This document shows positions 1 to 43,011 of a stretch of 64,000 nt of DNA, piece by piece (position 1 is the first letter of the stretch; each line of letters begins with the position of its first letter). Made by a program: the position numbers and the translations under genes. This stretch comes from an uncultured bacterium. GTDB lineage: Bacteria; Hydrothermota; Tepidihabitantia; SM23-42. Location: assembly GCA_964419565.1 (NCBI GenBank), contig CAYQPW010000008.1, forward strand, positions 28,284 through 92,283, read 5' to 3'. The notes beneath the pieces are model-generated. The model saw only the letters and a list, made by a program, of their open reading frames with translations, ran no database searches and was not told the origin of the DNA.

Positions 1-2094
1 TGCAATGAATACTTTGATTTTCTCAAGTTCTTTCTTCTTGGCCACAATTTCCTTGTCGAGCTTTTCTTTATCCGTTTTTAATCTTGAGATATTCGTTTTC
101 AAATCATCCATTTTTGCCACCATGGTGACGGTTTCTTTCTTCTGTTTCTGAAGCGCGGTCAGTTCTTGCTTGGTATCTTTTAACTCCTCTTTGAGTTGCT
201 CCTTCTTTTCATCGATTTCTTTATTGATATCAACGAGCTCCTGCCGTCTCTTATCCAGCTTGGATATCATATCCGCCTCAATGACTTTGGCCTTTTCTAT
301 CCCTCCTTCAAGCTCAGAATGTTTTATCTTTAAATCACCGAGTTTTTCTCCTACTTCCTCAACGTTTTTTGCCATTTTCTCGACATCAGCTCTATACTTA
401 TCCCGTTGTTTAATGAGTTCCTTGGTTTCTTTCTTCAATTCAACCGTCGAGGCTTCCTCCTCTTTTTTGAGCATTTCTAGTTTTTCGCTGAGTTTGTTCA
501 CTCTTTCTTCGCGCTCTGATATTTTTCCTTCGATCAGATTGAGTTCCTTCTTGCGCGTATCGAGCAATTGTTTGACCTTTTCATCTTGTTCGACAGCCAA
601 TTTGATCTCTTCGTATTCCTCTTTCATCTTCGGTAAAGAATTGGTTATTTCTTGATATTCGCTATCAACTTCCTTGAGTTTCGCTTCCTTTTCATCGAGT
701 TCTTCGGTTACCTTAGCGAGCGTAGCTTTTTTATCTTTGAGTTCCGCATCGATCGCTTCGTATTTATCGGCTTCCGGTTTTAATTCGGCTATTTTCTTTT
801 TTGCTAACTCGATGGATTCGCCTAATTCCTGGGCTTCTTTTTTCTTGTGATCAAAGTCAGATTTAATCTTTTCGTATTCAGGCTCCAACTTACGTAAATC
901 TTGTTCTTTTTCTTTGAGCTCCGTAACTCTAGGTTCAAGATCATCGTGATCTTCCCTCAACTTTTCCAGGTTCTCATTCAGGGTGTCGAATTCCTTTTGA
1001 TTTTTGGCTAATTCCTTTTCTAAAGAAACACTTTCCTTTTTGGAGGTTTTATATTTTTCATCAAGTTCTTTGAATGATGTCTCGAGGGTACTGAACTCCA
1101 GTTGAAACTGTGAAATATTCGAAACAAGTTCAGCCTCTTCTTCTTTCATATTTTTAAGGTCTGCAGCCACTTTGTCGTGTTCTTCTTTGAGCTTCGTAAA
1201 TTCGCTATTTTCTTTTTCAAGGTTTTGTTTTTCCGCAGTAAGGTTGCCAATGTCCTCGTTCAGCTGCTCAAGAGTCCCTGTTTTGTCCTTTATTTCGGCC
1301 TTTAATTCGCTAACCCTGGAAGTAAGCTCTGGCTTTTCCTTTTTCATTTCATCGATCAGGGATTCATCTTCTTCTTTTGTCTTGGTCAGGGTTTCTACCT
1401 CAGCGCTGAGTTCTTCGAATCTTGTTTGCTCTGAGTCCCTGCTCTTCTTCACCGTATCAAGTTCTTTGCTTAGCGAATTCTTCTCTTCGTTCATAATTTT
1501 CAGGTCTTTTTCTGTTGCTCGAAGATCCGCGAGAGCATTCCTCAATGTCTGTTCAATTTCCTGATATTCAGTCTTTAATTTTTCGGTTTTAACCTTGATG
1601 CCGTTATATTGTTTCTCCTGATCGCTTTGTCCCTTCTGTATTTTTGCCAATTCTTTTTCAGCGCTGCTGAGTTCTTTAGTCAGTGTAGAATGGCGGTTTC
1701 TCATCTCTTTCATTTGGCTGTCTATTTTTGATTTTTCATCATCCGTTTTCTCGATTTCTTTCCTAAGATCTTTTAAATTCTTTTCAAGTTTTTCTTTTTC
1801 TACGGATAATTTATTTATATCTTTTTGGGTTAACTCAATCTTCTTTGCATCTTTCCCGGTTGATTTCAGGGATTCCTTCAGAGATTTTTCCTCTTTCTTC
1901 AGTGCTTCGATATTCTTTTTTAAATCATCAAGTTCACCGGATATTTCCATCTGTGAGGAATATGTTTCAGCTATTTTATCCTCTATGTCTTTTAATTCCT
2001 TTTTCTTCGCAACCAGATCCTTTTCAGCTTGTTCTATTTTTCCGAGTTTTTCTTCGAGATCGGCTAATATATCGACATCATCTTTTTTTGCCAT
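1..2094 (-). CDS. Long K/E/L-rich coiled-coil protein, partial (C-terminus lies beyond the window edge)
   Basis: The minus-strand frame with codons aligned to window position 1 is open for all 698 codons. It runs from ATG at 2094 (MAKKDDVDILADLEEKLG...) to the window edge; I checked every 60-nt line for in-frame TTA/CTA/TCA and found none. GGGGG lies 5 nt upstream of the ATG. The S/F/L-rich + strand ORFs in the track (170..655, 1172..1564, 1845..2162) are its antisense shadows. No P-loop at the N-terminus. Confidence 0.8.
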   Translation of the reverse strand, partial: MAKKDDVDILADLEEKLGKIEQAEKDLVAKKKELKDIEDKIAETYSSQMEISGELDDLKKNIEALKKEEKSLKESLKSTGKDAKKIELTQKDINKLSVEKEKLEKNLKDLRKEIEKTDDEKSKIDSQMKEMRNRHSTLTKELSSAEKELAKIQKGQSDQEKQYNGIKVKTEKLKTEYQEIEQTLRNALADLRATEKDLKIMNEEKNSLSKELDTVKKSRDSEQTRFEELSAEVETLTKTKEEDESLIDEMKKEKPELTSRVSELKAEIKDKTGTLEQLNEDIGNLTAEKQNLEKENSEFTKLKEEHDKVAADLKNMKEEEAELVSNISQFQLEFSTLETSFKELDEKYKTSKKESVSLEKELAKNQKEFDTLNENLEKLREDHDDLEPRVTELKEKEQDLRKLEPEYEKIKSDFDHKKKEAQELGESIELAKKKIAELKPEADKYEAIDAELKDKKATLAKVTEELDEKEAKLKEVDSEYQEITNSLPKMKEEYEEIKLAVEQDEKVKQLLDTRKKELNLIEGKISEREERVNKLSEKLEMLKKEEEASTVELKKETKELIKQRDKYRADVEKMAKNVEEVGEKLGDLKIKHSELEGGIEKAKVIEADMISKLDKRRQELVDINKEIDEKKEQLKEELKDTKQELTALQKQKKETVTMVAKMDDLKTNISRLKTDKEKLDKEIVAKKKELEKIKVFIA

Positions 2095-2102
2095 TATACC
2101 CC

Positions 2103-5100
2103 CTATGGTTCAACGTAAACCATTTTAGCAGTTTTCTCCTCCCGAGCCATGGGTTTGGATAGTACAGACCAGCGTTTTCCTAATGGAGAGACATATTTTG
2201 TTCTAACCAAGCCCAGGGGATGTGGTTTTATTCCTAAGATATCTTTTTGTACAGCAAAATTTTGTAATCGGTGGTAAAGAAAAATACCCGGTGCTTCATC
2301 GAGTATCTTTCTCTCGATTTTTTGATATAATATATTTCTTTGGTTGAAATTTCTTAATTTCCTTGCTTGATCAATATCGTGATCAATGTCCGGTGATGAA
2401 AAGAAGAAAGTATTTCCAGAACGGCCGCGCGACGTTGAATGGAACAAGGGATAAACGAAATTATCCGGATCTCCATTATCACTTACCCAACCCCGAAAAG
2501 ACAGTAAAGAATCACCCGCATACGTTTTTTCGATCATATTATGCCACGGCATAGGATTTATCTCGATGCGTACGCCGATCTTCACAAGGCTTTGCTTGAT
2601 ATACTCAGCTCGCTTTATTGCTGTTGCCGTATCAGTTATATCGAGTTTGTAAATATCAGGTAATCCTTTGGCAAAACCGGCGTCCTTAAGTAAACTCATA
2701 CTTTTCCCGGGATCAAATGCATAACCCTCGAGTTGATGATTGAAAACCTTCATTGATGGGGGGAAGATACCTTTTGCTTTGATCGCAGAACCTTTGAGGA
2801 ATTTATTGACCAGCTCATTGGTATTAATGGCATAGGATAAAGCCTGCCTGATTAATCTATTATTAAAAGGTTCTTTCTCGCAATTGATACAGATATATTG
2901 TATTGAGAGCTCGGGTATCGTATAGAGCGATTTTGGCATTTCCGTTCTTATTCGTTTCAGCGCTTCGCCAGTGGGTTGGAAAATGGAAAGAGATCGATTC
3001 TTGAACAGCTCATAACCTACGGTTTCGTCCTTTATAATGAGAAAATAGAACTCATCTATAGTGGGTCTTCCTTCGAAGTAGTGGTCATTAGAATGAAGGA
3101 TAATTCTGTTGCCTTTTTCCCAGGCAACTAATTTAAAAGGTCCGGCGCCCACAGGTACTTCCTCATCCAGGTATGGGTCTGCGATATTGCATGCCAGGTT
3201 TGCCAGGATGGGTCGAAAGGGATATTCTAAATTAACTTTCAGGGTGGATTTGTTTATTACTTCTACTCCGATACCCTGCCCTTCGTTACTTTCAGCTAGT
3301 TCTTGGGCACCGCTGATCATATCATAGAAACTTTTATTCGGTCCTCTGAGAGCTCTTAAAATCGCTTCTTTGATGTCTTGGGCATGAATCGGGCGGCCAT
3401 TATGATACTTCAAATTGTCCCGCAGATGGAAGATATATTCTCGACCGTCTTTTGATATTGAATAATCCTGGCAGAGGCCTGGTATTATATCCGCTCCACT
3501 GCCAAATTGGAATAATCCTGCAGAACAATTACAAATTATCTGATGCGAATTGACATCTGTTTTGCGGTCCGGTTTTAAAGTCAGTGGTTCACTCGATAAG
3601 CTCGCGGTTAAGATCCTTTTAGCTTTGACGTAAACCGGAGTCTGATCCGAGGCTTTGATGAACAGTTTCTTCAGAACATTATTTAATTCAGAAATTTTTG
3701 TAATAATAGCTTCATAAGATTGCCATACATTGCTCAGTTTTTTGTTCTCCTTGTCCACAGCACTGACAACGTTGGAAATTGTTTCTGCTTGTTTTTTTTC
3801 TTCTCCGAAAACACGGCTGATATCGTCGAGGAATATTTTAATTTTTGAATAATCTGGGGGTCTGATCCTCATGGGCAATGCAACCGCTCTTTTCTTGCCC
3901 AGTGCATGGCTATTTTTTCGTACCAAGGTCAGTTGTGGAATTATACTGGCAAATGCCTGTTCAGTTTCTGCCTCAAGCTGGACAAATTCTTCAACAATAG
4001 GTGAGATCATATCTATATATATTGAACTTCTTCCTTGCTCAATTTTCGCAAATACTGATAGCGTCTTGATCCGGTTGAATATCTTGGCGGTGGATGAAAC
4101 GAGCTTTTCAACCTTTTTTATTTCAATATCAATTTCCTTCCCCAGATTGTCGAACCGATCATAAATCGTTTGGATCTCTTTAAGAAACTTTTCAATCTTC
4201 GTGCCGAGATCGATAATTTCAGTCATATCCCCGGCCAGGGTTTCTTTATACCCGTGGATTTCTTCAAGGGAATTATATAATACATCGATTTGTGCAGTCA
4301 TATTACCGATACTGTGGTAAATCTTGCTTGGAAAAAGCGGCGGTTTCTTGCGTCCCGAGAATTTTTCGATTGTTCTCATGTTTTCCTGTAAGAAAAAATT
4401 ATATTGCCCTTCTAAATATGACATATTCATCATTTCAACAAGACGCGGATCCTGATCTTTAGTTAGTAACATTGTTTCACTGAGGCTGCATAAAGTCTGA
4501 GCCAGGGAATTTATTTGATTACAATGAATTGAAATCTCATCGATCGTATTCAGTGAGGTGGTAAGCTGTTTTCTCAAGACGTCCAGACCTTCTGATACGC
4601 TCGATTGCAGTTGATTGTTGACGATACTGTTTTGTTCCAGCTGGGTTATTATATTTTGCAAGGATGCGGTTGTGTCATCTATTGTTCTTAGAGATTGGAA
4701 CGACTTCGTGAGTAATCCGCGCGCGCGCGAAGACAGTTCGATAGTCTTGCCGAGTTCCAGAATTACGGGTTTGGTAAGTTGCTCGAGATTATTCAATAGA
4801 TTAGTGAAATCCTGGAAAGGAAGTTGGGCAAGCCTGGCGAGTGATAGACACTCTTTAGCGATAATTGCCAGCCCCCTACCTTCTCTTTTTGCATGATGAG
4901 CGCATATCTCTGTATTTTTGGCGAGATTGGCGAGTGATTTAGCAGATTTCACAAAAAGATCTGCCTTATCCTGTATCTCTTGCAGCATATTGATCAAGGA
5001 TTTAAGTAATTCACTTATGGACAGTAACTGATCATTAATATCCTCCATCGTTGTTTCATATATGAAATATAAATCCTTTAATTTCAAAACATCCTGCTGC

Positions 5101-5288
5101 AATGTCTTAGAATAATCATGAATTATATGTATTAATTCATCACCCCGTGAGAAATGAGCAAAGAGAACCTCTAATTCACGAGTGAGCTTCTGAATATTAT
5201 CATTATTTTTGTTCAACAATTGTGAGACTTCATTTACGTTATCCCCCAGGATTACAGTCTTTTTTAAGTATTCATTTATTTCTGTCAT
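2103..5288 (-). CDS. Fusion protein: N-terminal chemoreceptor (MCP) signalling-domain-like coiled coil plus C-terminal family-5 solute-binding protein (DppA/OppA-like) domain. No signal peptide or TM segment seen.
   Basis: Residues about 118-155 (LANLAKNTEICAHHAKREGRGLAIIAKECLSLARLAQ) resemble the MCP hairpin tip ([33 protein letters not shown]). The C-terminal 470 aa or so (LKPDRKTDVNSHQII...KYHNGRPIHAQDIK...ADPYLDEEVPVGAGPFKLVAWEKGNRIILHSNDHYFEGRP) are typical SBP_bac_5. I trimmed the start from the track ORF (5354) to ATG 5288 (MTEINEYL) because 5297..5369 is a tRNA. Confidence 0.8.
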   Translation of the reverse strand: MTEINEYLKKTVILGDNVNEVSQLLNKNNDNIQKLTRELEVLFAHFSRGDELIHIIHDYSKTLQQDVLKLKDLYFIYETTMEDINDQLLSISELLKSLINMLQEIQDKADLFVKSAKSLANLAKNTEICAHHAKREGRGLAIIAKECLSLARLAQLPFQDFTNLLNNLEQLTKPVILELGKTIELSSRARGLLTKSFQSLRTIDDTTASLQNIITQLEQNSIVNNQLQSSVSEGLDVLRKQLTTSLNTIDEISIHCNQINSLAQTLCSLSETMLLTKDQDPRLVEMMNMSYLEGQYNFFLQENMRTIEKFSGRKKPPLFPSKIYHSIGNMTAQIDVLYNSLEEIHGYKETLAGDMTEIIDLGTKIEKFLKEIQTIYDRFDNLGKEIDIEIKKVEKLVSSTAKIFNRIKTLSVFAKIEQGRSSIYIDMISPIVEEFVQLEAETEQAFASIIPQLTLVRKNSHALGKKRAVALPMRIRPPDYSKIKIFLDDISRVFGEEKKQAETISNVVSAVDKENKKLSNVWQSYEAIITKISELNNVLKKLFIKASDQTPVYVKAKRILTASLSSEPLTLKPDRKTDVNSHQIICNCSAGLFQFGSGADIIPGLCQDYSISKDGREYIFHLRDNLKYHNGRPIHAQDIKEAILRALRGPNKSFYDMISGAQELAESNEGQGIGVEVINKSTLKVNLEYPFRPILANLACNIADPYLDEEVPVGAGPFKLVAWEKGNRIILHSNDHYFEGRPTIDEFYFLIIKDETVGYELFKNRSLSIFQPTGEALKRIRTEMPKSLYTIPELSIQYICINCEKEPFNNRLIRQALSYAINTNELVNKFLKGSAIKAKGIFPPSMKVFNHQLEGYAFDPGKSMSLLKDAGFAKGLPDIYKLDITDTATAIKRAEYIKQSLVKIGVRIEINPMPWHNMIEKTYAGDSLLSFRGWVSDNGDPDNFVYPLFHSTSRGRSGNTFFFSSPDIDHDIDQARKLRNFNQRNILYQKIERKILDEAPGIFLYHRLQNFAVQKDILGIKPHPLGLVRTKYVSPLGKRWSVLSKPMAREEKTAKMVYVEP

Positions 5289-5296
5289 AGCTCTAG

Positions 5297-5369
5297 TAGC
5301 GGCGGAGGGATTTGAACCCCCGACACAGAGATTATGATTCTCCTGCTCTGCCAACTGAGCTACGCCGCC
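5297..5369 (-). tRNA. tRNA-Met (anticodon CAT). Elongator type, or possibly tRNA-Ile2 if the C34 is lysidinylated. CCA not encoded.
   Basis: Reverse complement GGCGGCGTAGCTCAGTTGGCAGAGCAGGAGAATCATAATCTCTGTGTCGGGGGTTCAAATCCCTCCGCCGCTA folds as a 73-nt cloverleaf: 7-bp acceptor, GCTC/GAGC D stem, GGAGA/TCTCT anticodon stem, loop ATCATAA, TTCAAAT T loop. It lacks the initiator-specific three G-C pairs in the anticodon stem. Confidence 0.9.
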
Positions 5370-5378
5370 TCAATCAGA

Positions 5379-5406
5379 ATTATATCTATAAATATTGTAT
5401 TGTCAA
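5379..5406 (-). promoter_or_regulatory. Sigma70-type promoter for tRNA-Met and the downstream operon
   Basis: The minus strand reads TTGACA (5406..5401), a 16-nt spacer, then TATAAT (5384..5379). The tRNA 5' end lies 9 nt downstream. Confidence 0.5.
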
Positions 5407-5535: not shown

Positions 5536-6861
5536 ATGCCGATTATGCGAATTCCGATAACGATAAAATTCAGCACTTTGATATTTCTTCTAATCGTAGT
5601 GATTACGGGCGTAATATTCTGGTTCACACTGAATCGGGTAAGAGATGCTTTAACTCAAGAAATAAAACTTCAGGGCGAAATATTGGCGAATCTCATTGCT
5701 TTAAATGCCGAAGATCCGATAATAGCCAAAGATGATCTATATCTTGCGCGGCTGGTAAACGACGCGATCAAGAATGAAGGTGTAAGGTATACATACATTG
5801 TTGATAGTGATCAAATCATTCTCGCTTATGATAAGATGGACTGGATAGGACGGTCTGCTGACTCGATTATTAGGCCGGAAAACACATACCATGTAACACG
5901 GCCAATTGTGTTGGCTGGTAGAAAAAAGATCGGGGAAGTCCACGTCGGGCTTGATATTGAACGAATAAGCAAAATAACGAATAATATGCAGATTATCCTT
6001 ATTCTGATTTCCGTCATGGGATTACTTCTTGGCACGTTTGGTGCTATGTTACTCTCAAGATATTTGACCCGACCCATTCATGAACTTGTCGATGGCTTCA
6101 AAGCGATCGCTAATGGTGATCTTCGCCAGGTGCTCAGTAAAAAATCTGATGATGAGATCGGTGATTTAATGTCCGCGTTCAACCAGATGACCCAAAGCTT
6201 AATGGAAAAAGAGCAGATTAAGGATGCTTTTCGGAGATATGTATCGCGTCAGGTAGCTGAAGAAATATTTAAGAATCCGGATCAGTATATCGATACCTTA
6301 CGCGGAACCAGGCGCAAAGTTACTATACTCTTTGCCGATATACGGGGGTTTACACCACTGACCGAACGTTTGTCTGCCGAGGATGTTGTTACACTACTCA
6401 ATGAAGTTCTAACTAGTATGACAAAGGTGATATTCAAGCATGAAGGCACCGTCGATAAATTCATAGGCGACTCTATAATGGCTGTTTTCGGCGCACCAAT
6501 TGCCCATGTTGATGACACGGATCGATCGATACATGCGGCAGTCGAGATTCAAAGAGCCGTTCAGGAAATGAGTGAACAACGTAGAAGGGAAGAACGCGAA
6601 ATGATCAATGTGGGCATTGGGATTAATGCTGGTGAGGTGGTCGTTGGGAATATCGGCGCAAAAGTTCGTCTTGACTATACTGTGATCGGCGCGTCAGTTA
6701 ATATCGCAAATAGACTTCAGGAAGTGGCGAGTGGAGGTGAAATAGTTATTTCAGAAAGCGTTTTTAAGGAGACTACCGCGCCTTATAAGTATTCTGAGCC
6801 CATGCTCATCAAGGTAAAAGGAAAAGAAGATCCGGTTAAGATTTACCGGGTCTTGTATTGA
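5536..6861 (+). CDS. Membrane-anchored class III adenylate/guanylate cyclase with HAMP domain
   Basis: N-terminal TM segment (FSTLIFLLIVVITGVIFWF), a second TM, a HAMP-like segment (RPIHELVDGFKAIANGDLRQVLSKKSDDEIGDLMSAFNQM), then a cyclase core (KVTILFADIRGFTPLTERL...KFIGDSIMAVFGAP...GINAGEVVVGNIG). Confidence 0.9.
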   Translation: MPIMRIPITIKFSTLIFLLIVVITGVIFWFTLNRVRDALTQEIKLQGEILANLIALNAEDPIIAKDDLYLARLVNDAIKNEGVRYTYIVDSDQIILAYDKMDWIGRSADSIIRPENTYHVTRPIVLAGRKKIGEVHVGLDIERISKITNNMQIILILISVMGLLLGTFGAMLLSRYLTRPIHELVDGFKAIANGDLRQVLSKKSDDEIGDLMSAFNQMTQSLMEKEQIKDAFRRYVSRQVAEEIFKNPDQYIDTLRGTRRKVTILFADIRGFTPLTERLSAEDVVTLLNEVLTSMTKVIFKHEGTVDKFIGDSIMAVFGAPIAHVDDTDRSIHAAVEIQRAVQEMSEQRRREEREMINVGIGINAGEVVVGNIGAKVRLDYTVIGASVNIANRLQEVASGGEIVISESVFKETTAPYKYSEPMLIKVKGKEDPVKIYRVLY

Positions 6862-6862
6862 T

Positions 6863-7951
6863 TTAACCGATGATCAAACTGAATATCGCTCCGCTCAAAA
6901 TTAAAAATATTGGTTCAATTTTGAGCAAAAGTAAGATTATTAAAATTATCAGGCCAAAAATTCCATAAGGTACATTAACCCAATTTAAAAGGACAAAACT
7001 AATCCCCGTAGATAGTAAGATAGCTACAACCGCAGATTTAATACCAGTAAAAAAGGACATAACGAATTTATTATTACAGATCCTTTTGTAGATTTTAACC
7101 AGGACAATCAACATAATAAAAGAAGGAATGAAAATGCAGAATGAAGCTATGATCGCACCCGGTATGCCCATTACTTTTAAACCGACAAAGGTCGCCGTTA
7201 TCGCTACCGGTCCCGGGGTCATTTGGCCTAATGCCATGCCGTTAAGAAATTCTTGGGGAGTGAGCCAGGTTCGAGTAGTGCAGACCTCGTTTTTAATAAA
7301 AGGTATAGCTGCATAACCGCCGCCAAAGATAATCGCGCCTATTTTAAGGAATATCGCAGCTAAAGTGAGCGCCTTTTTCGGTTCAAATACGAATAATGGA
7401 ACAGCAAGCAAGCAGCGCTCGACATTTTTGACATAATCTAACATGACTCTAAGAAAACCACAGAGAAGAACCGTGAAGATAGGGTCAAATTTTACTAAGA
7501 AAAGTACTAAAGCGAAGAAGAAAATAATAAGACCCTTAATATCTTTAATAAGAACCTTGCCCATATCATATGCAGCCCAGAGAATTATCGATGTCATGAC
7601 TGCGCTAATCCCTTTAAATATTTGTGCAACTCCTGGCAGTGACTGGTAAGTAAGATAGAACCATGATAGAATTACCATAAGAACGAAAGAAGGCAGGAGT
7701 AAGGCGATCGCGGCGATCGCCGCTCCTTTCATCCCGAATAGGTGATATCCTATATATTCACAGTAATTCGGGATGAAAGGACCTGGTAATATCTGTCCCA
7801 TTGCCACTGCCGTACAGAGATCATCGTCGTCTATCAATTTTTTCTTTTTTACACATTCATTCCGTAGAATAGCAAGCATGCCAATACCACCACCAAACCC
7901 AAAAAGGCCAACTTTAAAAAGGGCTTTTGCTAAATCTTTAAGGGTTTTCAC
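6863..7951 (-). CDS. chrA: Chromate ion transporter (CHR) family protein with two CHR repeats
   Basis: Duplicated CHR signatures: FGFGGGIGMLAILRNE...GQILPGP and FGGGYAAIPFIKNE...WLTPQEFLNGMALGQMTPGPV. Polytopic and hydrophobic. Confidence 0.85.
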   Translation of the reverse strand: MKTLKDLAKALFKVGLFGFGGGIGMLAILRNECVKKKKLIDDDDLCTAVAMGQILPGPFIPNYCEYIGYHLFGMKGAAIAAIALLLPSFVLMVILSWFYLTYQSLPGVAQIFKGISAVMTSIILWAAYDMGKVLIKDIKGLIIFFFALVLFLVKFDPIFTVLLCGFLRVMLDYVKNVERCLLAVPLFVFEPKKALTLAAIFLKIGAIIFGGGYAAIPFIKNEVCTTRTWLTPQEFLNGMALGQMTPGPVAITATFVGLKVMGIPGAIIASFCIFIPSFIMLIVLVKIYKRICNNKFVMSFFTGIKSAVVAILLSTGISFVLLNWVNVPYGIFGLIILIILLLLKIEPIFLILSGAIFSLIIG

Positions 7952-8748
7952 TTGTTATAACTAGCGGTTTGGTAACCGGCAAGATCGAGGACCACAGACT
8001 CATAACCGAGTCGCTTAAAGTACCTCACAATGCGCTTGCTATTATCTAATATGAAATTGAATTCCGCAGTATAGACTTCGATGCGGGCTACAGGGAAATG
8101 ATCGCGCACCCGGATTTGGGAAAGGTCTAATCGTCTTAAGTAGTTCTCTGCTCGATCGATCCGTTCCAGGATTTTTTTATCTATTTTTTCTCCATAAGGG
8201 ATTCTCGATGCTAAGCATGCCATCGATGGTTTATTCCAGTTGGGTAGCTGTAATTTTCTGGCAGTCAAGCGGATCTCTTGTTTGGTTAAACCAACTTCAA
8301 TAAAAGGAGATAAGACTTTTAGTTTTCTTAAAGCTCTGAGCCCTGGTCGATGATCCGAGAGATCAGATTTGTTGCTTCCTTCAAGAACACTGAAGCCAAA
8401 TTTCGCAGCGATTGATTTTATCTGTTTGAATAATTGAAGTTTGCAGAGATAGCAGCGGTTTTTTGCATTACTGATAAATCGTGGGTTCGCTAACTCGCGG
8501 GTTCTGAGACAAATGTGCTTAACGCCCAAAGACTTAGCCAATTTCTTGGCATAAATAATATCTCTTTTCGGCTGAATCGGTGAAACGGCAGTAACCGCGA
8601 CGACATTGTTCTTCAATACATCGATCGTTAGTTTCAGTAACAGGGTTGAGTCGACGCCTCCTGAAAAGGCAACGACAGCACCTGGATACCTTTTTAAAAT
8701 ATTTTTTATTTCTATGATTTTGCTCTGTACCACCAAAGCCCTCTGCAT
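7948..8748 (-). CDS. PP-loop ATP pyrophosphatase, LarE-like (TIGR00268-type) sulfur transferase family
   Basis: PP-loop motif AFSGGVDSTLLL near the N-terminus, a later SMACLASRIPYG motif resembling the LarE Cys-loop, and a length of 266 aa. Confidence 0.65.
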   Translation of the reverse strand: MQRALVVQSKIIEIKNILKRYPGAVVAFSGGVDSTLLLKLTIDVLKNNVVAVTAVSPIQPKRDIIYAKKLAKSLGVKHICLRTRELANPRFISNAKNRCYLCKLQLFKQIKSIAAKFGFSVLEGSNKSDLSDHRPGLRALRKLKVLSPFIEVGLTKQEIRLTARKLQLPNWNKPSMACLASRIPYGEKIDKKILERIDRAENYLRRLDLSQIRVRDHFPVARIEVYTAEFNFILDNSKRIVRYFKRLGYESVVLDLAGYQTASYNK

Positions 8749-8797
8749 ACAGGGTTTGTATTTATAAAACTAGGACAAAATAGGTATGATGTAGTTT

Positions 8798-9064
8798 TTA
8801 AACTAAATAAGGTAAAAATTCTTTGCTGATCGGCGGCTGCTTGACCCAGCGGACGAGTTCATTTTTGTCATCAAGGACGATAACCGTTGGGATATCACTA
8901 ACTTCATGAAACGCACCCTCGGTTAAGCCATCGATCGTTTCCATATCATAATATTCTATTTTGGCATCGAATTTTTCTTTTTCCTTAAAATACTCGATTT
9001 TTTTACGTGCATCTTTGCATACTGGACATGTCGGCTTTCCAAAAATGAAGACTTTTTTCATCAT
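8798..9064 (-). CDS. Glutaredoxin/thioredoxin-like small redox protein (CPVC active site)
   Basis: 88 aa beginning KVFIFGKPTCPVCKDARKKI, with a thioredoxin-fold CxxC motif. AGGAGG lies upstream of the ATG. Confidence 0.75.
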   Translation of the reverse strand: MMKKVFIFGKPTCPVCKDARKKIEYFKEKEKFDAKIEYYDMETIDGLTEGAFHEVSDIPTVIVLDDKNELVRWVKQPPISKEFLPYLV

Positions 9065-9236
9065 ACCTCCTCAAATTGCGGTTACTAAAAATATCTAATC
9101 TCCCAAACCCTGTTAGCTCCCAGCTATCTAAATGGCGCAAAACATACTTGTCGACACACAGCTATTTTTTCTATAGTGCCATATTCGCATCTAACACACT
9201 ATTCTAATCAGGATTCTGAAAATGTCAAGCGCAAAA

Positions 9237-9895: not shown

Positions 9896-10573
9896 ATGAA
9901 AAGGTTATTAGATGTTTTTTCTGCACCAACAAGATTGTTTACCAGTATAAAGGAAAAACCAGAATGGATTTTGCCTTTTGTCATCGTCCTTGTCATTGTC
10001 GCAATTGCAGCATCGTCTACTGTCGTGCTGACGAAAGATGCGATGATCACTAGACAGGAAGAGGTTCTTAAGGAAAGGGGTTTGGACGATGCTCAGATCG
10101 AGCAGACCAAGAAATTCATGCAGGGACCTTTACCTGCAGTATTTGGTGGTATCAGTGGAGCGATCTTTGTCGGCATACTCTTATTATTGTTCACCGTGAT
10201 ACTCAACCTATTTGTACCTGTTTTTGGCGGCATCAGTGGTTTTAAAAGCGTTCTAACCGTGGTCAGTTTTGCAGCATTGATTAAGGTTCCATCAGCGATA
10301 CTTAAAATAATACTTATGGCGATAACAAAATCTCCATTTGTAACAACATCACTTGCGCTCATTACACCGAATTTAGAGAAAACATCGTTCGTTTATCAAC
10401 TGCTTGCGGGTTTTGATTTCTTTATCATCTGGGAAATGATACTCGTTGCGATCGGAATAAATATCATAAACGGCGTGAAAAAACAAAATGCCTATATTTT
10501 GGTGTTTTTAATCTGGGTTGTATCATTATTTATTGGTATCGGTCTCAGTTTTTTACGAGGACCTGCTGGCTAA
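9896..10573 (+). CDS. Yip1-domain family membrane protein
   Basis: MKRLLDVFSAPTRLFTSIKEKPEWILPFVIV... followed by 5 TM segments, a typical Yip1/DUF1282-like layout. ATG at 9896 is preceded by AAGGAG; the track start at 9890 is a GTG. Confidence 0.65.
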   Translation: MKRLLDVFSAPTRLFTSIKEKPEWILPFVIVLVIVAIAASSTVVLTKDAMITRQEEVLKERGLDDAQIEQTKKFMQGPLPAVFGGISGAIFVGILLLLFTVILNLFVPVFGGISGFKSVLTVVSFAALIKVPSAILKIILMAITKSPFVTTSLALITPNLEKTSFVYQLLAGFDFFIIWEMILVAIGINIINGVKKQNAYILVFLIWVVSLFIGIGLSFLRGPAG

Positions 10574-10617
10574 AGTTTCTTAAACATGTTTTTCAAAAGC
10601 GAGGATATTAAGAAAAG

Positions 10618-11853
10618 ATGATGGTTTTTTTACTTTTTTTTCAGATCGATTCCCTGTCTTTAAATAAGGCAATCGATATGGCACTTGCCCAGAGCCCGGC
10701 ATACTATGAAGCAAAAGTAACTTTCGAAAAATCCCGGATATTATACTATCAAACGCTGACCAGTTTGCTGCCAACAATATCAGCATCTGGAACTTATTCG
10801 AATAGTGAGTATCAGGGTGTTGAAAGTAGTGGCTATTCAGGTAATATTCAGTTGAACCAGCCTCTCTTTGACCTGGATATTTTAAGTTCTGTTTTTATCA
10901 GCCGCAGACAACAAAGGGGCAGCAGAATACAGTATGACGCACAGATCGCGGGGTTGATCCTCAATCTTAAAACCGCATATTATGATCTTATCAATGCACG
11001 AGAGCTTTTGGAATCATCAGAAGTTGCTATTGAAAGAGCCCGGGAAAATCTTGAATTAATAAAAACAAAATATGAGCTTGGTTCAGCATCGAGGCTTGAG
11101 ATGTTGCAGGGTGAGGTCTTTCACTTGAGTGCTTTGCAGGATAGGGCAAAAGCCCGGACCATGGAAATATCTGCACACGAGGAACTAAAATCAATACTCG
11201 GTACTCACGAGGAGATCAATGTGATAGATACCTTAACAATACCCGATAGCACAGATTTTCTGCCGCTCGACTCGATGTTCGTTATTCTCGCATCAGCGAA
11301 TTATAATATTCAAATCGCTCAGGAGTTAAGAAAAGCGGCAAAATTGGATCTGGTATCGTCTTACCTGAGATTCCTGCCAAGAATTTCATTATTTTACGGC
11401 TATACTTATAATTCAGATTCATTGGTTTTCGACTTTCAGCACGTTGAAGATAACGCAACTCGTAACTATGGGATAACGATGTCTTTTCCTATATTTGAGA
11501 TCAAATCTTTGATCTTCAATCACCTGAACGCGAAAAAGGAACTCGAGCTGCGAGAACATGAACAAAAACGTATTCTTCTGGAAAATGAAAAAAACCTGAG
11601 TACGACTTATTTTGCGCTGAAAGAATCATATGAACGAGTATATTTTGCCAGGAAAAGTTATGATGCCGCGACTGAGGCATCTGTTATTGCTCGAGAGCAA
11701 TATGCGCTGGGTATCATATCTTTTTTGGAATTTTTAGCGTCGGAAAAAGACCTTTATGGAGCCAAAGTTACATTTAAATCTGCTCTGAGTGATCTCTATA
11801 TTCAACGTGCTAACCTGTCTTATCTTCTCGGTCAGTCATTTAGTGAGGAATAG
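10618..11853 (+). CDS. TolC-family outer membrane efflux protein
   Basis: LSLNKAIDMALAQSPAYYEAK... with two repeat halves and typical OEP motifs (LLPTISASGTY, NLELIKTKYELGSASRLEMLQ). First gene of the efflux operon. Confidence 0.85.
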   Translation: MMVFLLFFQIDSLSLNKAIDMALAQSPAYYEAKVTFEKSRILYYQTLTSLLPTISASGTYSNSEYQGVESSGYSGNIQLNQPLFDLDILSSVFISRRQQRGSRIQYDAQIAGLILNLKTAYYDLINARELLESSEVAIERARENLELIKTKYELGSASRLEMLQGEVFHLSALQDRAKARTMEISAHEELKSILGTHEEINVIDTLTIPDSTDFLPLDSMFVILASANYNIQIAQELRKAAKLDLVSSYLRFLPRISLFYGYTYNSDSLVFDFQHVEDNATRNYGITMSFPIFEIKSLIFNHLNAKKELELREHEQKRILLENEKNLSTTYFALKESYERVYFARKSYDAATEASVIAREQYALGIISFLEFLASEKDLYGAKVTFKSALSDLYIQRANLSYLLGQSFSEE

Positions 11854-11890
11854 AAATGAAGTGCATTGGTAGTTTAACCAAAGGAGTGGG

Positions 11891-13051
11891 ATGAAAAAGA
11901 AGTTTTTATTTATAATCGGCGGTGTAGTTATTATTGCTATCGTGATCATACTCAATCTCTTGCAGGGCAATAAGGGCAAAGAAGTTGAGGTGAAAATAAT
12001 CCAAGAAGGCAATATCGTTTCCGAAGTCACGGCTTCTGGTGAGTTGCGAGCTAAGGCCCAAGTCGATATTTCTTCAGAAACGATCGGACGGATAAAAAAG
12101 ATATTTTTTCAAGAGGGTGATTACGTAAAAGAAAACGCCCTGCTTATAGAACTCGATGATGTTAAGGTCAAGGCAAGTAAAACACTTGCGGAAGCTCAGT
12201 TAAAACAAGCAGAACAAGATCTTGCTCGTGCTGAAAAGCTCTTTGAGAAGGACCTAATATCAAAGGAAAGCTACGAGAAAATTTTGTTGAGCTATGAAGC
12301 GACAAAAGCTCAATATGAACAGGCTGCAGATGCCTATAAAAAGACCAAGATCTATGCACCGATATCCGGGAAGATAATGAAGATAAACGTTGAAGAGGGT
12401 GAAACCGCAGTAATGGGCACGATGAACTACCAGGGAACCGTGCTCATGACCATAGCTGATATGTCGATGATGATCGCCGTGGTGACTATCGATGAAACAG
12501 ATGTTCCTACTGTATCAGTGGGGCAAGAGGTGCAAGTTATAGCAGACGCATTACCTGATTCGATATATTCCGGAAAGGTGACGAGAGTCGGTCTGATGCC
12601 TATTACCAGTCAACTCACTACTGAAAAAGTGACTGATTTTGAAGTTGAGATAGAGCTTGGTAAATTTTCGCCATTGCTGCGACCGGGGATGAACGTAAAG
12701 ACCGAGATAATAACCAGTGAAAAAAGTGATGTACTTATTGTCCCGATCCAGGCTTCAGGTAAAAGAAAGATCGAGGAAAAAACAGCGGAAACAGTTTTCA
12801 AAGTTGAGGGTGGCAATGCTGTTCTTAAAGAGATAGTCACTGGCGCCTCGAGCGATACTGATGTTGAAATCATTTCAGGCGTTGAACAAGGCGATACTAT
12901 TATTATCGGACCTTATCGCGTTCTTTCAAAACTGAAGGATGGTGAACATGTGCAATTTAAAATTGACGAAAAAGATACGTCATCTTCTAAATTGCCTCAA
13001 AGCACGGTTGCCCCCAGGCGCGTGCTAGGAGCAATAAAAAAAAGGATATAA
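11891..13051 (+). CDS. Efflux periplasmic adaptor subunit (HlyD/MacA family)
   Basis: N-terminal TM anchor, a coiled-coil hairpin (LKQAEQDLARAEKLFEKDLISKESYE), the YAPISGKIMKINVEEGE lipoyl-like motif, and a beta-barrel domain. Confidence 0.85.
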   Translation: MKKKFLFIIGGVVIIAIVIILNLLQGNKGKEVEVKIIQEGNIVSEVTASGELRAKAQVDISSETIGRIKKIFFQEGDYVKENALLIELDDVKVKASKTLAEAQLKQAEQDLARAEKLFEKDLISKESYEKILLSYEATKAQYEQAADAYKKTKIYAPISGKIMKINVEEGETAVMGTMNYQGTVLMTIADMSMMIAVVTIDETDVPTVSVGQEVQVIADALPDSIYSGKVTRVGLMPITSQLTTEKVTDFEVEIELGKFSPLLRPGMNVKTEIITSEKSDVLIVPIQASGKRKIEEKTAETVFKVEGGNAVLKEIVTGASSDTDVEIISGVEQGDTIIIGPYRVLSKLKDGEHVQFKIDEKDTSSSKLPQSTVAPRRVLGAIKKRI

Positions 13052-13734
13052 TGGGTGATAGAAATACGATTTGCCGAGCGCTCGATCTGAAGAAAACTTA
13101 TTGGCGTGGCAAAGTTGCGGTCGATGCATTACGGGGTGTAAGTATAAAGATATTGCCGAATGATTATATTTCGATCATGGGGCCATCTGGATCCGGAAAA
13201 TCAACGCTGGTCCACATCCTCAGCTGCTTGGATTCCCCAACATCGGGAGAGTACTATCTTGAGGATAAATTGGTTTCAAATTATACAGACCAGGAATTAG
13301 CTAAGGTCAGAAATATATTTTTTGGTTTTGTTTTTCAGAGTTTCAGTTTGTTGCCGAGACTTACCGCGCTTGACAATGTCGCAATGCCCCTTATTTATGC
13401 GGGCGTGAAAAAACAGGAAAGGAAAATCAGGTCTCAGACAATACTCAAGCGAGTTGGTCTCGAGGACAGAATGCTCCACCGCCCCAATGAAATGTCTGGT
13501 GGTGAATGCCAGCGTGTAGCTATCGCCCGATCGTTGGTTAATAACCCAAAGGTAATATTCGCCGATGAGCCGACTGGAAATCTTGATTCCAAGACCGGGA
13601 TGGAGATCATGGAACTTTTTGATAGTCTGGTTAAAGAAGGCAATACTGTAGTAATGGTGACTCATGATCTCAGTGTTGCTGATCATGCAAACCGGATCAT
13701 CAAATTAAAGGACGGGCTTATCGAAAATGATTGA
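13051..13734 (+). CDS. ABC transporter ATP-binding protein (MacB/LolD/FtsE-like)
   Basis: Walker A GPSGSGKST, signature MSGGECQRVAIAR, Walker B VIFADEPTGNLD. The start overlaps the upstream stop (TAATG). Confidence 0.92.
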   Translation: MGDRNTICRALDLKKTYWRGKVAVDALRGVSIKILPNDYISIMGPSGSGKSTLVHILSCLDSPTSGEYYLEDKLVSNYTDQELAKVRNIFFGFVFQSFSLLPRLTALDNVAMPLIYAGVKKQERKIRSQTILKRVGLEDRMLHRPNEMSGGECQRVAIARSLVNNPKVIFADEPTGNLDSKTGMEIMELFDSLVKEGNTVVMVTHDLSVADHANRIIKLKDGLIEND

Positions 13735-14977
13735 AATTCTTGCAAAAATCGCCCTCTCTTTTCAGACATTCAAAACCCACAGACTGAGGTCTGTGCTTAC
13801 CGCCCTGGGTATCATAATTGGCGTAACGACGGTTATTGCTATCCTTTCTTTGATCGAGGGGTTGAATAATAGTGTTGCCGAACAGGTGAAATCGATCGGG
13901 TCAGATTTGATTTTTCTTCAAAAATTTACATGGGTATCGACTGGCCACCGCGATCTTGAAAAACTTGCAGATCGCCCTGATTTAACCCCAGATGATGCTG
14001 TGGCGATCACTAAATTACCATCCGTCGAAATAGCGATTCCTGATATCGATCAACGGATTACCAAGATAAAATACAGGAATAATGAAGTAAGTAACCCAAC
14101 GATTACTGGTTCCGATGAAAATTATTCATGGGTAAATAATCATATTATCGAGAGTGGTCGGGATTTCACAAAGGATGATGTTCTTCACCGTCGACCAATG
14201 GGTATTATCGGATCTTTTATAGCCGCACAATTATTCCCCGATGAATCCCCGATTGGCAAGGATCTATATATCGATGGGCATCGGATAAAGATAATTGGCG
14301 TATTCAAAGAAAAAGGCTCTTTTCTCGGTAATAGTCTTGATAATTTTATACTCATTCCTTATACGGTCTATGAGAAATTTTATCCGAGAAGCAGAGGATC
14401 TATTTTCTCTCGTATTTACGGTGGATACTCAATAGATATAAAACCAAAATCCGGGGAAAAGATGGAAGAGACTATCGATGAAGTTAGGGAACTCATGCGG
14501 CGTAGACATGGTCTTGGTTTTGATGAAGAAGATGATTTTGAGATGAACACCCAGCAATTACTCATGGAGCTCTACCAGAACATAACCAGGGTAGGCTTTA
14601 TTGCGATCGTTGCGATCGCTGCTATTTCGTTAGTGGTTGGGGGAATTGGCATTATGAATATTATGCTTGTTTCTGTAGCCGAGAGGACAAGGGAAATCGG
14701 TATTCGAAAAGCAGTTGGCGCTTCAAATCAATATATCCTTTCGCAATTTCTTGTTGAGTCGGTCATGCTTGCTCTGGCCGGTGGTATTATCGGAATATTT
14801 TTTGGTATGTTACTCGCTGCCTTGATCTCAATTGCATCACCCCTGAAAGCAGCCGTATCTTTCTGGATGATCCTTTTGGGTTTTGGATTTTCCGCGTCGG
14901 TCGGTATATTCTTTGGTATTTATCCAGCGCGGCGTGCCGCGTCACTAAACCCGATAGAAGCTCTCAGGTATGAATAG
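13727..14977 (+). CDS. ABC transporter permease, MacB/FtsX family
   Basis: MacB_PCD-like periplasmic domain followed by an FtsX C-terminal 3-TM domain (RTREIGIRKAVGAS...YPARRAASLNPIEALRYE). Confidence 0.9.
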   Translation: MIEILAKIALSFQTFKTHRLRSVLTALGIIIGVTTVIAILSLIEGLNNSVAEQVKSIGSDLIFLQKFTWVSTGHRDLEKLADRPDLTPDDAVAITKLPSVEIAIPDIDQRITKIKYRNNEVSNPTITGSDENYSWVNNHIIESGRDFTKDDVLHRRPMGIIGSFIAAQLFPDESPIGKDLYIDGHRIKIIGVFKEKGSFLGNSLDNFILIPYTVYEKFYPRSRGSIFSRIYGGYSIDIKPKSGEKMEETIDEVRELMRRRHGLGFDEEDDFEMNTQQLLMELYQNITRVGFIAIVAIAAISLVVGGIGIMNIMLVSVAERTREIGIRKAVGASNQYILSQFLVESVMLALAGGIIGIFFGMLLAALISIASPLKAAVSFWMILLGFGFSASVGIFFGIYPARRAASLNPIEALRYE

Positions 14978-15120
14978 CGGGGTGAGGTCTTGAAACTTAA
15001 AAATAGATTCTTAACGCGATCTTCAGTTAGCAATAACCTTGAGGGTGTATCTTAAATTTCAAGACCTGACCCCACTATGTCGTCTTGACATAAGAATAAT
15101 TTAGCATAAAATTATTTTAG

Positions 15121-18100: not shown

Positions 18101-18270
18101 CGCGCTTAGCTGGCGAAATTTACTTTTTGCGGGGCATTGTGTACAAAAAACAAAAAAAGACAAGAGAAGCTCTGAAGATGTTCCTTGAGGCGACCAATAT
18201 TTTCCGGGCTAAAGGCAATCTGAGATTCGTCGATAAGATCGAGCGGGAGATTACCGAAGCACATATTTAA
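15121..18270 (+). CDS. Diguanylate cyclase (GGDEF) fused to a STAND/AAA16-type P-loop NTPase and a C-terminal TPR array
   Basis: The GGDEF domain starts at residue about 7 (DELTGSYNRRF). I-site REVD lies 5 residues before RYGGDEY. P-loop AGGAGIGKTRLV at about residue 198-209, Walker B LLLLDDLHWLD, then about 450 aa of TPR-like repeats (AIKFYENALKY, GNVYEDMGDYKQSIKQYQ...). Confidence 0.85.
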   Translation: MREIYYDELTGSYNRRFLHYWIDNEIKRATRFPAKFAILMLDIDDFRNINNSCGHLEGDKVLIEFSRVLDINIREVDSLVRYGGDEYLILMPNTDESGAIELAQRVMDYLNESDIVGHKIHCSIGYAIFPEDGITSEPLINQADNLMYNAKEQGKNRIGSKQQAVKNLQIPSLETIGREDETNWCLGELKDYDTLFVAGGAGIGKTRLVLEIKDRINAPVFLRGNAYAALTSVPYHPFKNMFSEMIKRDFGLVQRVFKQLPAISQAEIMKIFPAESALKVTYAESLDKYRLYNSVSEFLQRVYDIHAPGKILLLLDDLHWLDKPSCELMDFVIRSTHGNCKIFGTYRIEEIKNSAIEEFYNVWIREKLYTQITVSPLNETQTERLLKAIMGKAPGSGFKHIFKQSGGNPFYLEEIIREMERQGKLYWNGKEWVFARRLEITIPSTIEATINRKLKFLDSEIKKYLEIAAVYGQEFGAEIIALASNRNVGQILDAIDELSRLGFLKERSHDNHFFSEDLVRQIVYNNINRQDLIKYHRAVGVTIETIYRNVLPNYYEQLATHFMIANEVSKALYYSKEAARKAQNNYAHSAAIKFYENALKYEDNIDEIFKIKFALAEIFFLIGKFDKAIEQLNVCLKINPNSYRVHEKLGNVYEDMGDYKQSIKQYQVGLKLTRGTDAVYSFESDIAWVHTRLGDYNKAEIKCHKVLTKRRHLSKQTLGDTYLILGVVYLRLGKFKKAESYIRKALKIRESSGDKKRIAACYLDLGLNYYEKLDEEKSHHFYNRALKIYKEIGHQQGILIAYNNIGALYANTDLTKAEEYYLEALKQAKLVNAKQSIVYLYSNLGAIEFNRMMYDQTLLHYKEALKHAKLMNYPAGIVFSNIGLSDFYREQGKIKRGKLHLERAIKAAERVDMKYLHLDCMKEEIDYLLLERKLKKADALSKKMLSALRMERKGSYKVNSFIYRGKVFTEQKKYPKALEHYTKAFSYLKTYPSTRLAGEIYFLRGIVYKKQKKTREALKMFLEATNIFRAKGNLRFVDKIEREITEAHI

Positions 18271-18310
18271 AAGTCATTAGCAGGATAGCAAAAAACAGGA
18301 GGCTTTAATT

Positions 18311-18340
18311 AAAAAGGGGGCATATACATGCCCCCTTTTT
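18311..18340. terminator. Bidirectional intrinsic terminator between convergent genes
   Basis: AAAAAGGGGGCAT-ATAC-ATGCCCCCTTTTT: a 13-bp perfect stem flanked by A and T runs, so it can work on both strands. Confidence 0.8.
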
Positions 18341-18361
18341 AATTAGATTAATTCCGCATTA

Positions 18362-20457: not shown

Positions 20458-20529
20458 CGGCCCCAACGGGAATCGAACCCGTGTCTCCACCTTGAAAGAG
20501 TGATGTCCTAACCGCTAGACGATGGGGCC
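20458..20529 (-). tRNA. tRNA-Glu (anticodon TTC), CCA not encoded
   Basis: Reverse complement GGCCCCATCGTCTAGCGGTTAGGACATCACTCTTTCAAGGTGGAGACACGGGTTCGATTCCCGTTGGGGCCG folds as a 72-nt cloverleaf with anticodon loop CTTTCAA. Confidence 0.9.
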
Positions 20530-22730: not shown

Positions 22731-22858
22731 GAAACCTCCTGAAATAATTATATGAAGCATCATGTGTTTGTCAACACAGGTGAATTATCGGGCACAAAGA
22801 TTTGACAACAGAGCATTTGCATCTTGATTTTTTCTTAATGCCAAGTATAATACCAGAG

Positions 22859-38663: not shown

Positions 38664-38673
38664 AATACCTCCA

Positions 38674-38695
38674 TGCGATCCATATATGGATCGCA
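38674..38695. promoter_or_regulatory. 22-nt perfect palindrome abutting the RBS of the 37875..38663 gene
   Basis: TGCGATCCATATATGGATCGCA is its own reverse complement. On the coding (minus) strand it ends 1 nt before the GGAGG Shine-Dalgarno. Confidence 0.4.
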
Positions 38696-38799
38696 GCTAA
38701 TAGTAGATAGCTTCTGGCAGATAACCGATAACGAGTCTCTTATAAGCCATTAACTATGAGCTATCTGTGGTGTCACTTTGGGTGACACGCCACATACAC

Positions 38800-38871
38800 A
38801 GCGGGCGACGGGATTCGAACCCGCGACCCTCGGCTTGGGAAGCCGATGCTCGACCCCTGAGCTACACCCGC
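38800..38871 (-). tRNA. tRNA-Gly (anticodon CCC), CCA not encoded
   Basis: Reverse complement GCGGGTGTAGCTCAGGGGTCGAGCATCGGCTTCCCAAGCCGAGGGTCGCGGGTTCGAATCCCGTCGCCCGCT. Anticodon loop TTCCCAA. Confidence 0.9.

Positions 38872-43007: not shown

Positions 43008-43011
<4 letters not shown>

Follow-up and report, generated by a model that had tools for sequence, protein, structure and literature searches.

A soluble chemoreceptor-like protein with two signaling hairpins and a fused DppA-type binding domain, encoded behind a tRNA-Met gene in candidate division WOR-3

Architecture and expression unit of the fusion protein

At one end of a 64-kb stretch of DNA from an uncultured bacterium (contig CAYQPW010000008.1 of assembly GCA_964419565.1, positions 28,284 to 92,283; all 64,000 nucleotides of it are referred to here as the window) lies a minus-strand gene for a 1061-aa protein in which helical hairpins of the kind found in methyl-accepting chemotaxis proteins (MCPs) precede a family-5 solute-binding protein (SBP5) domain. 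As read from its sequence, the protein carries two MCP signaling domains in tandem, the second of them degenerate, and no transmembrane (TM) segment. A promoter and a tRNA-Met gene stand before the gene and a K/E-rich coiled-coil gene behind it (Table 1). Full-length homologues, here called group A, form ~36 protein clusters of ~1050-1090 aa that share 37-86% identity and conserve the architecture. In a genome scan covering one genome per species, group A was confined to metagenome-assembled genomes (MAGs) of candidate division WOR-3/“Ca. Stahlbacteria,” the nearest relative being 86% identical. A paralogue of the same architecture, group B, heads a che operon in WOR-3.

The first signaling domain forms a hairpin of two long antiparallel helices joined by a U-turn tip of high conservation, the helices spanning residues 2-132 and 134-277/278 in two AlphaFold2 (AF2) models. 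Conservation within the N-terminal half is highest at this tip (residues 122-146), where the family consensus LAKNTEIRAHHAKxEGKGLAIIAKE aligns without gaps to the canonical MCP tip and where N125, A133, G137, G139, I143, and A144 are invariant among orthologues. A family profile built from the N-terminal 560 aa (residues 1-560) of 15 sequences was compared with the PDB, and its six best matches were all chemoreceptor cytoplasmic domains, aligned in register around the hairpin tip. The strongest was T. maritima TM1143 (2ch7/3ja6; E = 7e-14, profile positions 62-275 against chain positions 79-303); TM14 (3g67) matched at E = 4e-9 and Tsr (1qu7) at E = 3e-4. In a library of 1.84 billion representatives this profile had 35,494 matches at E <= 1e-3; among the matches listed, those below the ~12 family clusters look like ordinary chemoreceptors, judged by their length and the matched profile positions (~10-270 in most), the library being nameless. 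The AF2 model of the 1061-aa protein has a mean predicted local distance difference test (pLDDT) score of 81.7 and a predicted template modeling score of 0.62, and the N-terminal half has a mean pLDDT of 82.7.

The second hairpin comprises helices at residues 286/288-309, 321/322-420, 425-464, and 481-540/542 in the two models, and in its tip K408, L410, and E417 are invariant, as is R420 in the 15-sequence subset. Its relation to MCPs emerges through the paralogue. Submitted by themselves to the Pfam MCPsignal model, the second hairpins of three group-B members score 53.8, 42.7, and 32.7 bits (threshold, 34.6), and the group-B tip 2, ITERSRLLGLYAGIESARSGKYAEPLGVVTSEIKTLS, matches the canonical tip at 17 of 40 positions without a gap. 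Alignment of groups A and B by hhalign gives 97.9% (E = 6e-13) for hairpin 1 and 95.8% (E = 7e-9) for hairpin 2. Two signaling domains can thus be assigned to the window protein, because Pfam finds the second hairpin of the paralogue and the A-to-B alignment carries that assignment over. Within one group, hairpins 1 and 2 align weakly by hhalign (18% in group A, 27% in group B). They are matched in length, with arms of ~140 residues. From tip to tip the spacing is 279 residues in group A and ~275 in group B when matched motif starts are compared; with tip 2 registered on the canonical GRGF turn, our arithmetic gives ~288 and ~284 residues.

The SBP5 domain is complete and follows 560 aa of helical bundle. 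Pfam SBP_bac_5 covers residues 601-953 (E = 8.8e-77), the first NCBIfam match is DppA (1.3e-56), and among solved structures E. coli DppA comes closest (1DPP; E = 1.9e-58). Foldseek comparisons of the domain model gave template modeling scores, normalized to the target, of 0.75-0.87 against DppA, GbpA, OppA, and MppA. The motif GWVSDNGDPDNF is invariant across both paralogue groups, and its first Asp (D937) aligns to DppA Asp408.

No hydrophobic segment, TM helix, or signal peptide was found in the fusion protein: no 19-residue window exceeds a Kyte-Doolittle value of 1.6, and the same holds for 34 orthologues. The N terminus offers the SBP5 domain neither an export signal nor a lipobox, and with no signal peptide and no TM segment to export or anchor the protein, the domain remains cytoplasmic. 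Translation begins at an ATG at position 5288 (N terminus MTEINEY). A longer reading from a TTG at 5354 (open reading frame 2103..5354) was rejected because that start falls within the tRNA-Met gene on the same strand, so that the extension is a translated tRNA gene; the tRNA immediately upstream also leaves no space for a missed signal peptide or other N-terminal extension. Four database proteins (P0004, P0007, P0019, and P0016) have start codons called inside the upstream tRNA, and their N termini (MAEQENHNLCV.GSNP...) are likewise translated tRNA and mis-called.

A first-pass annotation of the window, made from the letters and their open reading frames, had described the product as lacking a signal peptide and a TM helix, with a divergent MCP hairpin-tip motif (here residues 130-155, nucleotides 4824-4901), a possible second, degenerate tip (residues 413-435, nucleotides 3984-4052), and a complete C-terminal SBP_bac_5 domain of the DppA/OppA type. 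The homology searches bear out this description for the minus-strand gene, and the second tip proves to be part of a genuine second MCP domain. The missed upstream start that it had named as a possible source of a signal peptide or TM region is excluded by the tRNA, and it had overlooked both the tRNA-Met gene and the consensus promoter that lead the operon.

Both of these leading elements are conserved. A same-strand tRNA-Met(CAT) gene stands directly upstream of the fusion gene in all 18 orthologous loci examined (L005, L007-L010, L012-L018, L020-L023, L025, and L041), and a TTGACA...TATAAT/TATACT pair lies ahead of the tRNA in 16 of them, an arrangement kept down to 39% protein identity. 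The gap between tRNA and ATG is 7-10 nucleotides in most loci, A/T rich, and without a Shine-Dalgarno sequence. We infer that the tRNA and the fusion gene are co-transcribed and that 3' processing of the tRNA would give a near-leaderless mRNA; the succession of promoter, tRNA-Met, 7-nucleotide gap, and ATG is a clear-cut example from nature of an mRNA whose 5' end tRNA processing would generate.

Behind the fusion gene, the conserved group-A unit continues with the coiled-coil gene and a YitT gene. The coiled-coil protein, which the first-pass annotation had placed 8 nucleotides downstream and followed for more than 698 aa, is 717 aa long in identical JGI contigs, where a gene for a YitT-family membrane protein comes next. 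It is a conserved partner, found directly downstream in 15 of 16 GTDB loci at 712-738 aa, with conserved patches along its full length and a C-terminal end reading ...KELEKIKxFIARLxEAQ...ISF. Pfam assigned it no family except generic coiled-coil matches, and a homologue search with it returned nothing at E <= 1e-5, itself included, probably because of compositional filtering and because coiled-coil proteins saturated the candidate list.

Table 1. Coordinates of the features discussed (nucleotides of the window unless another locus is named)
Feature	Position	Strand	Basis and remarks
Sigma-70 promoter, TTGACA-16 nt-TATAAT, 12/12 consensus	5379..5406	minus	10 nt before the tRNA
tRNA-Met(CAT), elongator-like	5296..5369	minus	ARAGORN; ends 7 nt before the fusion-gene ATG
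Fusion gene (group A), 1061 aa, double MCP hairpin + SBP5	2103..5288	minus	Open reading frame call, Pfam, homologue alignment, AF2 model
Signaling domain 1, MCP hairpin, residues 1-278	4455..5288	minus	Family profile vs solved MCPs, AF2, hhalign
Tip 1, residues 122-146, LAKNTEICAHHAKREGRGLAIIAKE	4851..4925	minus	Top conservation in N-terminal half, HMMER alignment to 2ch7
Signaling domain 2, degenerate MCP hairpin, residues 286-545	3654..4433	minus	hhalign to paralogue hairpin 2, Pfam on paralogue, AF2
Tip 2, residues 403-435, IFNRIKTLSVFAKIEQGRSSIYIDMISPIVEEF	3984..4082	minus	Conservation, paralogue equivalent
DppA-like SBP_bac_5 domain, residues ~557-1040, cytoplasmic	2169..3620	minus	Pfam, NCBIfam, PDB match, Foldseek
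K/E-rich coiled-coil partner, first 698 codons, runs off the window	1..2094	minus	Start 8 nt past the fusion-gene stop
WOR-3 che operon with double-MCP/SBP5 receptor	L039 (CP070664.1) 9896-19806		Pfam annotation; includes a second Roadblock protein
Two Por_Secre_tail-like proteins and a 692-aa clostripain-family peptidase	21078-22763, 28018-29523, 52560-54635	minus, plus, plus	Pfam

The che-linked paralogue and other relatives

Group B, also from WOR-3 MAGs, is ~29% identical to the window protein over nearly its full length, measures ~1047 aa, and has no TM segment. Its member at locus L039, in the complete genome CP070664.1, matches Pfam MCPsignal at full length with 60.6 bits in two stretches. 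In ~35 genome or metagenome loci the group-B gene stands first in an operon and is followed directly, always in the same order, by genes for CheW, CheY, CheA, CheC, a TPR protein, and a TPR+Roadblock/LC7 protein. The CheW is a single-domain protein of 144 aa (Pfam, 1.7e-30), the CheY has 119 aa, and the TPR protein has 794 aa; the CheA, at ~505-510 aa, lacks the P2 domain and comprises Hpt, dimerization, HATPase, and CheW domains. Because a paralogue of the same architecture heads this operon, groups A and B together represent a true chemoreceptor family. The genome scan found both paralogues in nine MAGs, CP070664.1 among them.

The only WOR-3 strain in culture, a recent first isolate, is piliated and was not visibly motile (PMC12285271), and the output of the WOR-3 Che system may for this reason be pili or polarity rather than flagella; the TPR and MglB-like Roadblock genes of the operon fit such an output loosely. 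At L039 a gene for CstA, a peptide/pyruvate transporter, lies upstream of the paralogue in divergent orientation (7517-9193, minus strand), and it is also found upstream at L085, L088, L090, and L094. It was considered as a clue to the ligand and dropped, since it stands beside the group-B gene in just these 5 group-B loci.

More distant relatives broaden the picture. Two proteins of other uncultured bacteria, at L042 (767-5584; 1605 aa) and L043 (7562-12022; 1486 aa), have the order hairpin-SBP5-hairpin-SBP5 and look like head-to-tail fusions of two hairpin-SBP5 subunits; in the L042 protein, Pfam finds two MCPsignal stretches (79.5 bits at full length) and two SBP5 stretches. Protein P0037 (GCA_037441225.1; L006 10001-13174), 28% identical to the window protein over 44% of the query, is an MCP with hydrophobic N-terminal segments (Kyte-Doolittle maximum, 2.73 in 19-residue windows), a HAMP-like stretch, a fully canonical tip, and a C-terminal SBP_bac_5 domain, and its gene is followed by a YjbQ gene. 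MCPs that end in a cytoplasmic SBP5 domain are thus not confined to WOR-3.

Proposed function and alternatives

Given the domain layout, sequence relationships, and conserved gene order described above, together with the che operon that the paralogue heads, our preferred reading is that the fusion protein is probably a WOR-3-specific cytoplasmic chemoreceptor of the double-signaling-domain kind with a cytoplasmic SBP5 sensor. In the mechanism we propose, the SBP5 domain would close on a small intracellular ligand bearing an amine, perhaps a metabolite that resembles a peptide or a peptide taken up from outside. This closure would be transmitted into the fused four-helix bundle and thence to the conserved hairpin tip, and the tip would modulate a CheW/CheA-type partner as the tips of soluble chemoreceptors do. 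The signal would likely run through the Che pathway of WOR-3, which has the group-B paralogue as its own receptor. Expression would start from the consensus sigma-70 promoter on a transcript headed by tRNA-Met, and the same transcript would carry the coiled-coil protein and the YitT membrane protein.

That groups A and B share one pathway is suggested because nine MAGs hold both and because their tip spacings are nearly identical. Entry into chemoreceptor arrays requires matched lengths (PMC7534058), and the near-equal spacing is compatible with co-assembly of the two in a single array. Receptors of this type seem to serve as the dedicated input to the WOR-3 che operon, in what would be a phylum-wide sensory system, and they may show how a large binding domain of the periplasmic type drives an MCP bundle from the cytoplasmic side. 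An intracellular sensor built from a soluble MCP-like/SBP5 fusion had been put forward in the first-pass annotation, and this reading gains support from the conservation of the architecture in the group-A clusters; the search for the same architecture that had been suggested along with it also brought to light the group-B paralogue and its operon.

Several observations weigh against this reading. The Pfam MCPsignal model (PF00015) matches the fusion protein itself at residues 80-222 with E = 9.7e-6 and 26.0 bits, short of the gathering score of 34.6, and leaves hairpin 2 of the window protein unrecognized; in the Pfam check that had been proposed for the MCP assignment, the single sequence thus stays below threshold, and the match to solved MCPs comes from the family profile. 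No che genes occur in the window or near any group-A locus examined. Their absence, as first noted, holds for the window, and beyond it the family has its che operon through the paralogue in WOR-3 genomes. A tblastn search found no copy of the paralogue elsewhere in the 64 kb. Among species-level MAGs, the che-linked paralogue was recovered from 0 of the 7 in the window's clade (68-86% identity) versus 9 of the 12 in other clades, and the organism of the window may therefore lack the group-B che operon. The che cluster of CP070664.1 contains neither CheR nor CheB. The coiled-coil protein, which could possibly act as a scaffold for a cluster of cytoplasmic receptors or help to position it, is not indispensable, since it is reduced to 387 aa in CP070664.1 and is missing from two metagenome loci, L115 and L129. 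Finally, the binding pocket departs from that of DppA, in which we take Asp408 to anchor the peptide amine and Arg355 and Tyr357 to hold the carboxylate: Arg355 aligns to an Asp and Tyr357 to a gap, and neither is kept in the fusion family. Because the carboxylate-binding Arg is replaced, the predicted ligand would be amine bearing and peptide-like and would be no standard dipeptide.

In an alternative that we regard as rather unlikely, group A has left chemotaxis and been co-opted as a scaffold. Its tip and bundle would then bind a protein outside the Che system, such as YitT or the coiled-coil partner, in a CheA-independent cytoplasmic sensor or structural assembly related to chemoreceptors by descent only. 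Such a history would agree with a gene neighborhood in which the coiled-coil and YitT genes are nearly always present and che genes never are, and with the lack of group B in the 7 MAGs of the window's clade. It would also agree with the deviation of the group-A tip from canonical and group-B tips at known contact positions (Tsr E385 to C/R, R388 to H, and F396 to L, by our own mapping) and with a tip 2 that is far more degenerate in group A than in group B. Most bacterial chemoreceptor genes, however, lie remote from che operons. The nine MAGs with both paralogues count against co-option, as does the agreement of helix lengths between groups A and B within ~4 residues when tip 2 is registered on the canonical turn; moreover, the tip remains invariant in the very loci where the coiled-coil partner is shortened or absent.

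The arrangement of the two hairpins bears on a further possibility. They could pack side by side as a single-chain, pseudo-dimeric four-helix bundle that mimics the obligate MCP homodimer, with the SBP5 domain at the far end, and in the window's clade, where the che-linked paralogue seems to be missing, signaling could then be independent of CheA and run through the coiled-coil partner and YitT, in a chemoreceptor-derived cytoplasmic sensory assembly of a kind not described before; taken as a whole, we consider this proposal improbable. The packing itself is weakly favored by three features. Degeneration of the tips is complementary, tip 1 retaining the C-arm pattern GxGxxxIAxE and tip 2 the N-arm pattern LxxxAxIExxR; in the L042 lineage the two hairpins have lengthened together, with arms extended by roughly 15-26 residues in each; and relatives with the order hairpin-SBP5-hairpin-SBP5 exist. 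A tight inter-helix break at residues 278-287 of the AF2 models is a further hint in the same direction. Should the hairpins form such a bundle, the protein would amount to a naturally occurring single-chain chemoreceptor, with uses in structural studies and in engineering.

It is very improbable that the resemblance to MCPs is merely compositional and that the SBP5 domain is tethered to a structural rod of generic coiled coil. The subthreshold Pfam score of the single sequence points in that direction, as do weak matches to many unrelated coiled-coil families, such as ATG17_like and TMP_3, and a Foldseek search with the N-terminal model that returned low-scoring matches only, mostly SMC/Rad50 arms with meaningless superpositions (2ch7 reached a target-normalized score of 0.40). 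A compositional likeness would not, however, be expected to place MCPs alone among the six top profile matches, all in register at a gap-free tip, nor to extend by hhalign over both N-terminal hairpins to a paralogue whose own hairpins pass the Pfam threshold and whose gene stands in a che operon.

It is hardly credible that the protein serves an ATP-binding cassette (ABC) importer as its exported or membrane-anchored substrate-binding component, with a start or signal peptide that was missed: SBP5 domains are normally extracytoplasmic (PMC8050422) and databases annotate family members as “ABC transporter substrate-binding protein,” but the tRNA abuts the ATG in every locus examined, the protein has no hydrophobic segment, neither the neighbor lists of the loci nor the window annotation shows Dpp/Opp permease or ATPase genes adjoining the fusion gene, and the SBP5 domain follows a 560-aa helical bundle that in the paralogue must reach cytoplasmic CheW and CheA.

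Comparison with known systems and neighboring genes

The closest known kind of protein is the DosM-type double-signaling-domain cytoplasmic chemoreceptor (F9 class; V. cholerae VC1403). DosM, like the WOR-3 proteins, is soluble, without TM segments, and has two tandem MCP signaling domains per chain, and the WOR-3 paralogue, like DosM, belongs to a chemosensory system. The DosM gene belongs to F9 clusters that also encode the triple-domain CheW3, and a sensory domain is missing from 98% of DosM homologues (PMC9321776); the operon of the WOR-3 paralogue, in contrast, has a single-domain CheW and a P2-less CheA, group A has no che neighbors, and the WOR-3 proteins carry a C-terminal SBP5 domain of 500 aa. 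The second tip is degenerate in WOR-3, and markedly so in the window protein. The DosM molecule is an elongated rod that bears a tip at either end and spans two CheA/CheW layers (PMC7534058), whereas the WOR-3 hairpins may instead form the side-by-side single-chain pseudo-dimer considered above. With a single-domain CheW in the che operon, a degenerate tip 2, and an attached SBP5 domain, the WOR-3 proteins therefore fall outside the F9/DosM family by gene context.

A sensor module placed after the signaling domain of a cytoplasmic MCP has a precedent in H. pylori TlpD, a soluble (class IV) chemoreceptor with a C-terminal CZB sensor domain. The WOR-3 proteins differ from TlpD in that their sensor has the SBP_bac_5 fold rather than being a small zinc-binding or PAS domain and in that each chain has two signaling domains.

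For the SBP5 domain the natural comparison is DppA, its best match in sequence and fold, which in E. coli feeds chemotaxis through the receptor Tap (PMC8050422). DppA is free and periplasmic and docks on the periplasmic domain of Tap, whereas the WOR-3 domain is cytoplasmic and covalently fused, and the dipeptide-pocket residues noted above set the two further apart. An intracellular SBP5 sensor is not without precedent either, because SgrR-type regulators combine a cytoplasmic SBP_bac_5 domain with a winged-helix DNA-binding domain. In SgrR, however, the output is the DNA-binding domain and not an MCP bundle, and the sequence kinship is negligible (NCBIfam, E = 0.019). P0037 and the L042 and L043 proteins resemble the fusion protein in uniting MCPsignal and a C-terminal SBP_bac_5 domain in one chain; P0037 differs in being membrane anchored, with the hydrophobic N-terminal segments, HAMP-like stretch, and canonical tip described above, and the L042 and L043 proteins differ in having an additional SBP5 domain between their hairpins.

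No description of an MCP-SBP_bac_5 fusion was found in the literature, and a review of the subject treats only free solute-binding proteins that dock on receptors (PMC8050422). Cytoplasmic SBP5 domains and soluble double-signaling-domain receptors both have precedents; the combination is new, and the principle is not. The fusion protein thus presents a new receptor architecture that unites a soluble chemoreceptor, two signaling domains per chain, and an intracellular SBP5 fold, each known separately, and the family provides a handle on the role of a chemosensory pathway in the peptide-degrading sediment bacteria of WOR-3.

Other genes in the window touch on this setting to varying degrees. Two proteins, a BNR and a beta-helix protein, have subthreshold matches to the Por_Secre_tail sorting domain of the type IX secretion system (25.6 and 26.7 bits; cutoff, 27). 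Together with the clostripain-family peptidase (Table 1), these proteins are in keeping with a lifestyle based on degrading proteins or peptides, and such a lifestyle could be relevant to a peptide-like ligand.

Close to the tRNA-led operon lies a cluster of second-messenger genes, encoding a membrane-bound HAMP adenylate/guanylate cyclase, a 1049-aa GGDEF-AAA_16-TPR protein, and a cyclic-nucleotide-binding protein (5536-6861, plus strand; 15121-18270, plus strand; and 20511-21023, minus strand). The divergent cyclase at 5536-6861 was considered as part of the fusion-gene unit and rejected, as it is not conserved beside the orthologues. Pfam gave no match at E <= 1e-4 for five open reading frames of 160-450 aa (37144-40276, minus strand; 43008-44228, plus strand; and 44257-44736, minus strand). 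A 323-aa DUF4388/PatA_N (PATAN) protein (55936-56904, minus strand) is encoded by a gene that overlaps that of a 574-aa protein without a Pfam family (56897-58618, minus strand). PATAN domains are found in regulators of motility and taxis, and the neighborhood of the fusion gene in CP070664.1 also contains a pair consisting of a PATAN gene and a gene of the 574-aa type (L004 16852-19537).

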